The translations under genes and the position numbers were made by a program. The notes under the pieces are model-generated. The model worked only from the letters and a program-made list of their open reading frames with translations. It did no database searches and had not been told where the DNA came from. DNA of 64,000 nucleotides from Eledone cirrhosa (Eukaryota), in contig OZ024743.1 of NCBI GenBank assembly GCA_964016885.1, positions 228,098,001-228,162,000 of the forward strand, in the 5' to 3' direction. Shown here piece by piece: positions 3,323 to 11,756 of this stretch. The number at the start of each line of letters is the position of its first letter. The stretch's first letter is position 1.

Positions 3323-3574
3323 CTAGTGACTGTAAGGAATCTGCCATTTCAATGTGCGACACATTAGTTTCAGAAAAAGAAGCTTTGTTGTGGGTTATCT
3401 ACGATATCTCAGCAGACTTTTTCTTTTATTTGTTTACTACTGATTCCAGTCATCAGACTACGGTCATGCTGGGGTACCAACTTAAAATACATCATATCGA
3501 AACAGTACTTATCTAACCGATATCTTTTTCTTCTGTCAAACTGCAACGCTAAAGGTCAAGCACACACACACATT

Positions 3575-3678
3575 ATATCATATATATATTATATCACACA
3601 TTATATCATATATATATATACATACATACATATATATATATATAAATACATATATATACATACATACATATACATACA

Positions 3679-3712
<34 letters not shown>

Positions 3713-4101
3713 AATACATATATATATATATATATGTATTTATATATACATACATACATACATACATACATACATAAATATACATACATACACATACATA
3801 CATATATATATATATATACATACATACATACATATACATACATACATACATACATATATATATACATATACATACATATATATATATACATACATATATA
3901 TATACATACATATATATATATACATACATATATATATATACATACATATATATATATATACATACATATATATATACATACATATATATATACATACATA
4001 TATACATACATATATATATACATACATACATACATACATATATACATATACATACATATATACATACATATATACATATACATACATATATATATACATA
4101 C

Positions 4102-4136
<35 letters not shown>

Positions 4137-4666
4137 CATACATATATATATACATACATATATATATATACATACATATATATATATACATACATACATA
4201 CATACATACATACATACATACATACACATACATACATATATATATACATACATATATACATACATATATATATACATACATATATACATACATATATATA
4301 TACATACATATATACATACATATATATATACATACATATATATATATACATACATACATATATATATACATACATACATACATATATATATATATACATA
4401 CATATATATATATATAAATACATACATACATATATATATAAATACATACATACATATATATATAAATACATACATACATATATATATAAATACATACATA
4501 CATATATATATAAATACATACATACATATATATATAAATACATACATACATATATATATAAATACATACATACATATATATATAAATACATACATACATA
4601 TATATATAAATACATACATACATATATATATAAATACATACATACATATATATATATACATACATA

Positions 4667-4698
<32 letters not shown>

Positions 4699-4707
4699 CA
4701 TATATAC

Positions 4708-4738
<31 letters not shown>

Positions 4739-4829
4739 CATACATACATATATATATATATACATACATACATATATATATACATATATATATATACATA
4801 CATATATATATATACATACATATATATAT

Positions 4830-4870
<41 letters not shown>

Positions 4871-4933
4871 CATACACACATATATATACATACATACATA
4901 CATATATATACATACATACATACATATATATAT

Positions 4934-5030
<97 letters not shown>

Positions 5031-5245
5031 CATACATATATATATATACATACATATATATATATACATACATATATATATATACATACATATATATATA
5101 TACATACATATATATATATACATACATATATATATATACATACATATATATATATACATACATATATATATATACATACATATATATATACATACATATA
5201 TATATACATACATATATATATACATACATATATATATACATACAT
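3575..5245. repeat. Compound (TA)n/(TACA)n array with a 24-bp higher-order block at ~4417-4650
   Basis: TA/TACA mosaic with about ten consecutive copies of AATACATACATACATATATATATA. Confidence 0.97.
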
Positions 5246-5260
5246 ATATTTATTAAAATA

Positions 5261-5336
5261 ACAGATTAAAGTTTAAGCAAAGAATCGCTGCTTTCACCCT
5301 TAACGGGATCTTCTGAAACTAACAAAGTCAATCTGT
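5261..5336 (-). ncRNA. Extended type-I hammerhead-like motif (mirror copy in the left arm)
   Basis: Reverse complement of 6047-6122, including the CAGAAGA variant core. Confidence 0.55.
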
Positions 5337-6046
5337 AAACGCAGAACTGGATATTTCAAAAAACGTTGCAACCGGAGGAAGACAGGAAGACGATACTTTG
5401 GTTCGTGGTAACGTTCGCTGGCAAAGAACGGGAAAAAACGAATAATACGTCATTAATAGGAGCGGTGAAAAACAATTACGCGCAAAGACAAAACCACATT
5501 TATGGTATAAAAGAGGTCGTAGACTAATGTTTTCTTAGGTGGTGCATAGAGACGTTCTCTGGCAATGACCGAAAAAACGAAGATAATAAGTCATATGTGG
5601 AGCGTGGAGAACAATAGCACGCAAAGACAAAACCACGTAAATGGTATAGCAGAAATCGTAGACTAAAATTCTAACTTGGAGACCAAATGAATCTCCGCTA
5701 CCTCCTAGTTAGAATTTTAGTCTACGATTTCTGCTATACCATTTACGTGGTTTTTGTCTTTGCGTGCTATTGTTCTCTACGCTCCACATATGACTTATTA
5801 TCTTCGTTTTTTCGGTTATTGCCAGAGAACGTCTCTATGCACCACCTAAGAGAACATTAGTCTACGACCTCTTTTATAACATAAACGTGGTTTTGTCTTT
5901 GCGCGTAATTGTTTTTCACCGCTCCTATTAATGACGTATTATTCGTTTTTTCCCGTTCTTTGCCAGCGAACGTTACCACGAACAAAGGATCGTCTTCCTG
6001 TCTTCCTCCGGTTGCAACGTTTTTTTAAATATCCACTTCTGCGTTT

Positions 6047-6122
6047 ACAGATTGACTTTGTTAGTTTCAGAAGATCCCGTTAAGGGTGAAAGCAGCGATT
6101 CTTTGCTTAAACTTTAATCTGT
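6047..6122 (+). ncRNA. Extended type-I hammerhead-like motif with U4A core variant
   Basis: Distal stem I ACAGATTGA/TTAATCTGT with a 7-nt bulge CTTTGTT; proximal stem I AGTTT/AAACT; core CAGAAGA (6068-6074); stem II CCC-GTTAA-GGG; GAAA (6088-6091); stem III AGCA/TGCT; predicted cleavage after CUU (6108). Confidence 0.55.
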
Positions 6123-6225
6123 TATTTTAATAAATATTTGCTCTACGGTTCTTATATATTTGATATATATTTATCCTTATCGAGCCCTCTTTGGATTTTA
6201 GTCTTCAATTTTATTATTATTACTA

Positions 6226-11145
<4,920 letters not shown>

Positions 11146-11756
11146 TGGTGGCTGCCAACTCGTTTTCGAGTACGGCCACTACTTTATATCCATGTAGGAG
11201 AACCCCTACTGATGCGCTGAACGAGTGTGACTTTTTAGTCCAGCCAGCGACTTGAAAGCTCTGGTACAAACACTACACTTGTGACAATTATTGACACATA
11301 GTGCTGGGCCCATGGTACCATGTGACGACAAATGCAGTGAGATCTCCAGATATAAAGCAATGCCTGTGCCGTGAAGCTTTTATAGTGAGCAAAGGCACTG
11401 CACAAAGCCAGTCCCACTCTCTTAACCAAGATGATATTTACCAAAAAGAAGAACAAGTCAACATCATTGGATACCATCAGGGTTGCAGGTGTTATATCAG
11501 AGTTTTCCTTCTCCTAGAATTCTGCCTTGACAAAGGCTAAGGGATCATCTCTCCCGGTGATTTTGGATGGGCATTGACTCTTAAGAGCTCCTTTGCCTTT
11601 TGACAGGTTTTGTTTTTAGTCCTGCAGGATGTCCAAAGTCACCCTCCTCACCAAGAAACCTTGGTGGGGTTGCCAGTTTAGTCGCCAACGACCCGACCAT
11701 GGGACAGGTTGTACTGGAATACATGTTACCAGTAGCACCAACTGGTGCTACTGGTA
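11146..11756 (-). mobile_element. Non-autonomous RTE-LINE-derived element, copy 1
   Basis: Highly similar to 22027-22500 and 30734-31340. The minus strand encodes [23 protein letters not shown] (C2H2 finger, typical of RTE ORF C-termini), then a CTCG-AAAA-CGAG hairpin and a microsatellite tail. It contains AGGAGAAGGAAAACTCTGA, recalled from RTE 5' UTRs. No RT or endonuclease. Confidence 0.8.

Follow-up and report, generated by a model that had tools for sequence, protein, structure and literature searches.

Penelope-like elements (PLEs) have been described to insert into (TA)n targets and to carry an inverted 5'-truncated copy together with a tail on one side (PMC8557442, PMC3846280), the tail being usually 30-40 bp long in these descriptions. 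The preference for (TA)n is not unique to the Hydra clade, and has been described for Naiads as well (PMC8557442). The Hydra clade of C-terminal EN+ PLEs (Craig et al. 2021, PMC8557442), of which Hydra-1_Ajap, Penelope-9_HM, Penelope-13_HM and Hydra-1_Obim are named examples and in which elements are placed by RT phylogeny and by a C-terminal EN without CCHH, is among the known systems closest to the locus analyzed here. For Poseidon_Ac, it has been shown in vitro that both strands of AT-rich DNA are cut and extended, that two internal RNA start sites bound the tail, and that cleavage by the hammerhead is dispensable (Frangieh et al. 2024, PMC11167929). Minimal hammerheads have also been found in pairs on opposite strands, 100-700 bp apart (PMC4209133), and retrozymes have been proposed to be derivatives of PLEs (bioRxiv 10.64898/2026.07.22.740005).

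Here we analyzed a foldback in a stretch of 64,000 nt of Eledone cirrhosa DNA (the window). Our view, to which we give a probability of about 85%, is that the foldback is made up of two 3' ends, both shortened, of a repeat with a high copy number, placed head to head in a TA array and with a tail on one of them, and that one insertion event likely produced it, through a Penelope-like and probably Hydra-clade reverse transcriptase (RT)-endonuclease that is encoded elsewhere. The first-pass annotation had described a near-perfect foldback of 892 bp (5246..6137), with arms of 431 bp and a spacer of 30 nt, between two TA arrays. The foldback is real, and so is its position between TA/TACA arrays (Table 1). 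Its dimensions had to be revised: global alignment gave two inverted arms of 436 bp each (5246-5681 and 5702-6137) that differ at 11 positions (9 substitutions and 2 one-base indels) and are separated by a loop of 20 nt, the earlier extents having stopped at a single mismatch (5677/5706). Furthermore, the element proposed earlier lacked the one-sided tail that extends from 6138 to about 6227.

The left copy (456 nt), which contains the spacer and has no tail, and the right copy, which including its tail measures about 526 nt, meet with their 5' ends at the junction 5701|5702, where there is no microhomology, and the 5' truncation of the right copy leaves 20 nt less than that of the left one. 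Each arm holds the tandem duplication of 139 bp, and the hammerhead discussed below does not lie within it. The last TATA of the tail may be target DNA, and a target-site duplication is unreadable, both flanks being TA repeats. Because both flanks share strand polarity, they are likely to represent one array that was split by the insertion. TA-type arrays with a strong strand skew occupy 4.7 kb at 56723-61404 and 4.9 kb at 6224-11146 of the window, and a weak palindrome (69% alike), largely made up of mixed microsatellites, is present at 56236-56644.

Table 1. Positions of the features of the foldback and its surroundings, in coordinates of the window.
Feature	Position	Strand	Basis or remark
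Left TA/TACA microsatellite flank	3574..5253	.	TACA 206 vs TGTA 1
Left copy, 456 nt, a 3' end of the element that is 5'-truncated	5246..5701	-	ends at the family's first 3' end
Mirrored predicted hammerhead, same sequence as at 6063..6113	5270..5320	-	relaxed descriptor
Internal tandem duplication, 139 bp, 1.8 copies, 78% alike	5411..5666	.	mirrored at ~5711-5973
Loop (spacer), upstream of the arm in the family and retained by the left copy only	5682..5701	-	X4 contig and loose ends behind 5698-5701
Right copy, arm part, 436 bp	5702..6137	+	alignment
Predicted type I hammerhead, Hydra-like layout	6063..6113	+	relaxed descriptor, Hydra table
One-sided tail, spanning the 86-90 nt from the first to the second 3' end of the family	6138..6227	+	loose (TA)n ends, contigs
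Tail hairpin motif GCTC...GAGC-nCTCT	6140..6190	+	starts 3 nt behind the first 3' end
Right TA/TACA microsatellite flank	6224..11146	.	TACA 607 vs TGTA 19

The repeat family was studied in public contigs of 24 runs, 20 of which contain part of the stretch and 8 of which were aligned. In run X1, 20,498 contigs match 5677-6230 (554 nt), and since their cover goes beyond the arm up to 6227, the 86-90 nt past the arm belong to the element. Among the 13 listed of the 345 loose ends in X1, 143 contigs run into (TA)n behind 6137 and 138 do so behind 6227; the left copy ends exactly at the first of these exits, and the right copy exactly at the second. The (TA)n target is present both at the locus and in the family contigs. 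A strand switch was found at 9 of the 15 joints among those listed for X1, at varied positions, and contigs leading from the arm into the tail are present in X4, X6 and X7. In a 540-nt contig of X4, the arm is followed by the spacer as in the left arm and then by 29 new letters; because contigs of four of the eight runs (X2, X4, X5, with 46 letters, and X9) likewise continue through the spacer into further family sequence, the spacer is family sequence kept by the left copy only. The summed depth in X1 climbs toward the 3' end, from 0.3 to 2.9 million, a figure that is not a copy number and to which we attach little weight, and its drop across the spacer is likely an edge effect. Low-depth contigs near the family majority (1-14 per run, compared with 20,498 in X1) were also seen in X4, X6, X7 and X9, which are labelled as other organisms; trace host DNA is the simplest reading of these.

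The contigs also permitted the changes in the arms to be polarized, by those of X4 and X7 and by the majority in X1, the left-arm states being inferred via complementarity. Relative to the family, the right arm has 8 private changes and the left arm 3, a split that is not significant (two-sided binomial ~0.23). Both arms have a G at 5815, where >99% of the X1 depth shows T, and this shared rare base points to one donor lineage for both arms. At 6036, the arms carry the two common alleles of the family (G accounts for 43% of the X1 depth), which could reflect two template RNAs or a recurrent mutation, a single site being unable to decide. The private changes also bear on the possibility that the foldback is an artefact of the assembly or of chimeric reads. 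Such an origin would agree with the simple-repeat flanks, with the fact that the best runs contain only 0.63 of the sampled words, and with the lack of a listed contig bridging 5701|5702 in four runs (none in X2, X5 and X9, and no match at all in X8), whereby it should be noted that contigs drop rare forms, so that this lack shows the junction to be neither present nor absent. We consider it very improbable: each arm has changes of its own, the left arm terminates where 143 other contigs do, at a biological end, while the tail is not mirrored, and the same layout recurs in two other elements of the window (see below).

Several features speak for the inverted pair of PLE pseudo-LTRs (pLTRs) that the first-pass annotation had proposed. 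Firstly, an inverted 5'-truncated copy is present at the 5' end, as in EN+ Penelope-like elements. Secondly, a tail is present on one end, together with two fixed 3' ends into (TA)n. Thirdly, the inversion points vary, and the layout of the predicted hammerhead is of the Hydra type. What this proposal lacks is a linked RT or endonuclease, EN+ PLEs having an ORF with a telomerase-like RT and GIY-YIG: neither copy gave a match to an RT or GIY-YIG coding frame, none of the 138 ORFs of the window (>=55 aa, above the complexity filter) reached the Pfam cut-off, and upstream of the core, 430 nt or more look non-coding. Membership of the Penelope-like elements would thus rest on non-coding features, and the family is best called Hydra-like rather than a proven member of the Hydra clade, the short RNA motifs having been compared by eye. 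A DNA transposon of the foldback or MITE type, bounded by long terminal inverted repeats and inserted at TA, would likewise give a long, near-perfect and non-coding inverted repeat at a TA target. Terminal inverted repeats of this kind, which the first-pass annotation had named as the opposing case, do not agree with the unequal ends of the foldback. The tail on one side, the inversion points that vary among copies without a fixed centre, and the family sequence that runs past the centre in one orientation largely refute a DNA transposon; with the hammerhead layout near the ends also against it, we deem this explanation extremely unlikely.

The comparison with described elements supports the reading as a PLE insertion. 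As in truncated PLE insertions with an inverted pLTR (PMC3846280, PMC8557442), 5'-truncated copies are arranged head to head and only one of them has a tail, which differs in being 86-90 nt long here instead of 30-40 nt. Penelope-13_HM resembles the locus in having an inverted 5'-truncated copy and a hammerhead on each strand (PMC8557442). With members of the Hydra clade, the locus shares the (TA)n target, a predicted type I hammerhead with a short stem II flanked by U.U and a U at the cut site, and a hairpin motif behind it (PMC8557442); by our own count of the hammerhead table in PMC8557442, stem II is flanked by U.U in 14 of the 26 Hydra rows and in 0 of the 8 Chlamys/PLE-X rows, and the base at the cut site is U in 10 of the 26 Hydra rows. 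The differences are that loop III has 9 nt here compared with 1-3 nt in the same table, and that no ORF is linked to this family. The family also differs from Hydra-1_Obim, whose 3' end as given in PMC8557442 showed no match by eye. Taken as such, the foldback would be a truncated PLE insertion of a Hydra-like type, ordinary and young in appearance, and the locus one of many ordinary PLE insertion footprints.

The orientation of the loop and the tail on one side are informative about how such an insertion may arise. On the favoured scenario, an enzyme would cut both strands of the TA array, and each DNA end would prime reverse transcription on element RNA, one priming site lying behind 6137 and the other 86-90 nt further 3'. 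The two cDNAs would stop after ~456 and 526 nt, respectively, and would then be end-joined. The palindrome would be a by-product of the insertion and not a selected device, and the hammerhead would be inherited from the element's 3' end. We favour two separately primed cDNAs because they would explain both the loop and the tail. It has alternatively been proposed for inverted PLE junctions (PMC3846280) that one cDNA folds back and copies itself, and the short loop of 20 nt and the rare base shared by both arms would fit such self-priming. However, the loop continues the left copy, which is tail-less and cannot template the tail, and the tailed right copy cannot supply the loop in this orientation. 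In addition, the end base 5701 is unpaired with 5682, and position 6036 holds both common family alleles, one per arm. Loop orientation and one-sided tail exclude self-copying in its simple form, and we regard self-priming as improbable overall; with these two features, a single locus provides a clean argument for separate priming of the two cDNAs over self-copying. The locus resembles Poseidon_Ac (PMC11167929) in its AT-rich target and, on the favoured scenario, would also do so in the extension of both strands and in a tail bounded by two internal start sites; Poseidon_Ac belongs to a different clade from the Hydra-like family.

The same PLE machinery may have moved a non-autonomous, retrozyme-like unit without an ORF of its own in trans, a possibility that differs from the preferred explanation only in the nature of the donor and that we rate at somewhat below even odds. 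There is no coding frame in the 456 nt, nor in at least 46 more AT-rich nt upstream, the family has the internal 139-bp duplication, and the proposed origin of retrozymes from PLEs would suit such a unit. Like the animal non-LTR retrozymes (bioRxiv 10.64898/2026.07.22.740005), the family is non-coding, probably PLE-related and predicted to carry a type I hammerhead. Unlike in these retrozymes, hammerhead units are not repeated head to tail at this locus, where there is one hammerhead per copy. Moreover, the upstream sequence has no match to the tail, so that no sign of circular permutation can be seen here, and repeats are possible in the 3' UTRs of Hydra elements too, as in Hydra-1_Ajap (PMC8557442).

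The hammerhead-like motif that had been annotated in each arm, on opposite strands, was recovered with a relaxed type I descriptor that allows any base at positions 4 and 7. With both strands of the window searched, this descriptor found the two sites in the arms and no others, and it found 0 sites in 40 locally shuffled windows. In their opposite strands the two sites resemble the dual hammerheads of PMC4209133, and their spacing of ~750 bp is just over the range given there. The predicted hammerhead has a 5-bp stem I, the core CAGAAGA, a 3-bp stem II flanked by U.U and a 4-bp stem III, with a predicted cut after U6108; the other core bases and all three stems are present, and position U4 is an A. 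It is not the minimum-energy fold (z ~0; -4.8 vs -8.8 kcal/mol). Rfam gave 0 matches in the window at the gathering score, and at E<=10 no hammerhead among 16 rows of miRNA-like, low-complexity and other weak non-ribozyme matches. A 25-nt hammerhead pattern had 0 loci in metagenome and viral contigs, and three short motifs of this hammerhead were not found in the accessible supplement of PMC8557442, where line breaks could hide a match.

The core thus reads CAGA, unlike the CUGA, with U at position 4, of all 26 Hydra rows in the hammerhead table of PMC8557442. Since, with a threshold of 5%, none of 4 runs has an alternative base listed at 6069 (two rows were hidden in this check, and the per-run A>T tallies are accounted for at other positions), the U4-to-A change is, as judged from the contigs, family-wide. 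One low-depth contig of X6 with a diverged stem II retains the change, which is a weak hint that it is old. The U10.1-U11.1 mismatch is a known tolerated hammerhead variant and U4C lowers activity while still allowing viroid infectivity (PMC3088659), and CUGA mutants of a type III hammerhead have low activity (PMC9901934). In the open literature, with subscription journals and Repbase/Dfam outside the search, we found neither a natural U4A hammerhead nor this repeat family described, and the accessible part of PMC3376415 holds nothing on U4. Because the A at U4 is absent from all 26 Hydra rows, the predicted hammerhead likely cuts weakly or not at all. It is tempting to speculate, as a tentative and rather doubtful proposal, about a Hydra-like family that has been massively amplified while being fixed for A at U4 and keeping its three stems. 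On the one hand, this might be a natural and active core variant that is missing from the tables consulted, perhaps assisted by a protein. On the other hand, it might be a natural experiment at the scale of a genome, indicating that cleavage is dispensable for Penelope mobility in vivo, the fold being kept for another role. With the family-wide change, it could be tested cheaply whether the mobility of a PLE depends on cleavage by its hammerhead.

The first-pass annotation had further proposed that a transcript from either strand could form ~430 bp of dsRNA and would carry a ribozyme motif near its 3' end. The dsRNA part agrees with our prediction of pairing over 428 bp in a read-through transcript; the ribozyme part does not, because the hammerhead would be fully paired with the other arm, buried in the duplex, and could not fold. 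Octopus shows high hyper-editing, and Penelope of a lizard is heavily edited (PMC5625713); by analogy, editing is plausible if the locus is transcribed, and such foldbacks would in that case add to the dsRNA pool. It is a different matter whether the foldback is a selected dsRNA device, an ADAR or Dicer substrate with ribozyme-trimmed ends. The predicted pairing and the editing reported for octopus and lizard would suit such a device, which we nevertheless find hardly credible. Once polarized by the family contigs, the 9 substitutions between the arms include no A-to-G change, whichever strand is considered, so that the arms hold no fossil of ADAR editing; the hammerheads would be sequestered in the duplex and have a mutated core; no exon was found in the window; and the layout is fully explained by the insertion.

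The tail hairpin motif occurs at five separate loci of the window, at 6140 and four others, compared with 0.16 expected, and by eye it is also present in the consensi of Hydra-2_Amil, Hydra-1_Ajap and Hydra-2_Ajap (PMC8557442 supplement). Two of the four other loci (31981 and 55210) could not be linked to a PLE end. Folding of the tail hairpin is not significant on its own (z -1.45 and -0.38), and the motif in the tail of a second family folds otherwise. Two copies of this second family, 86% alike, lie at 17946-18141 and 46441-46638, and a third, partial copy begins at ~46636. They have the same layout as the foldback: a TA repeat, a palindrome of ~116 bp, and a one-sided tail of ~80 nt with the same hairpin motif. 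The centre of their palindrome has GAAAC flanks on both strands, as if it had folded at stem II of a hammerhead. At 31846 (-) there is a CTGATGA...GAAA motif, the stem II region of which is long, and the hairpin motif at 31981 (-) lies 135 bp from it, across a TA run; these two motifs are probably decayed PLE ends. Other repeats in the window include three copies of a LINE-like 3' end, each inside TA arrays (11148-11755, ~22030-22501 and ~30730-31340), on the frame of which a C2H2 zinc finger scored below the Pfam cut-off. Finally, a dispersed SINE-like family, which we take to resemble octopus SINEs, is present at 2165-2348, 42651-42831 and 55555-55736, with fragments at ~731-883, 14999, 29420-29577 and 63698-63834.
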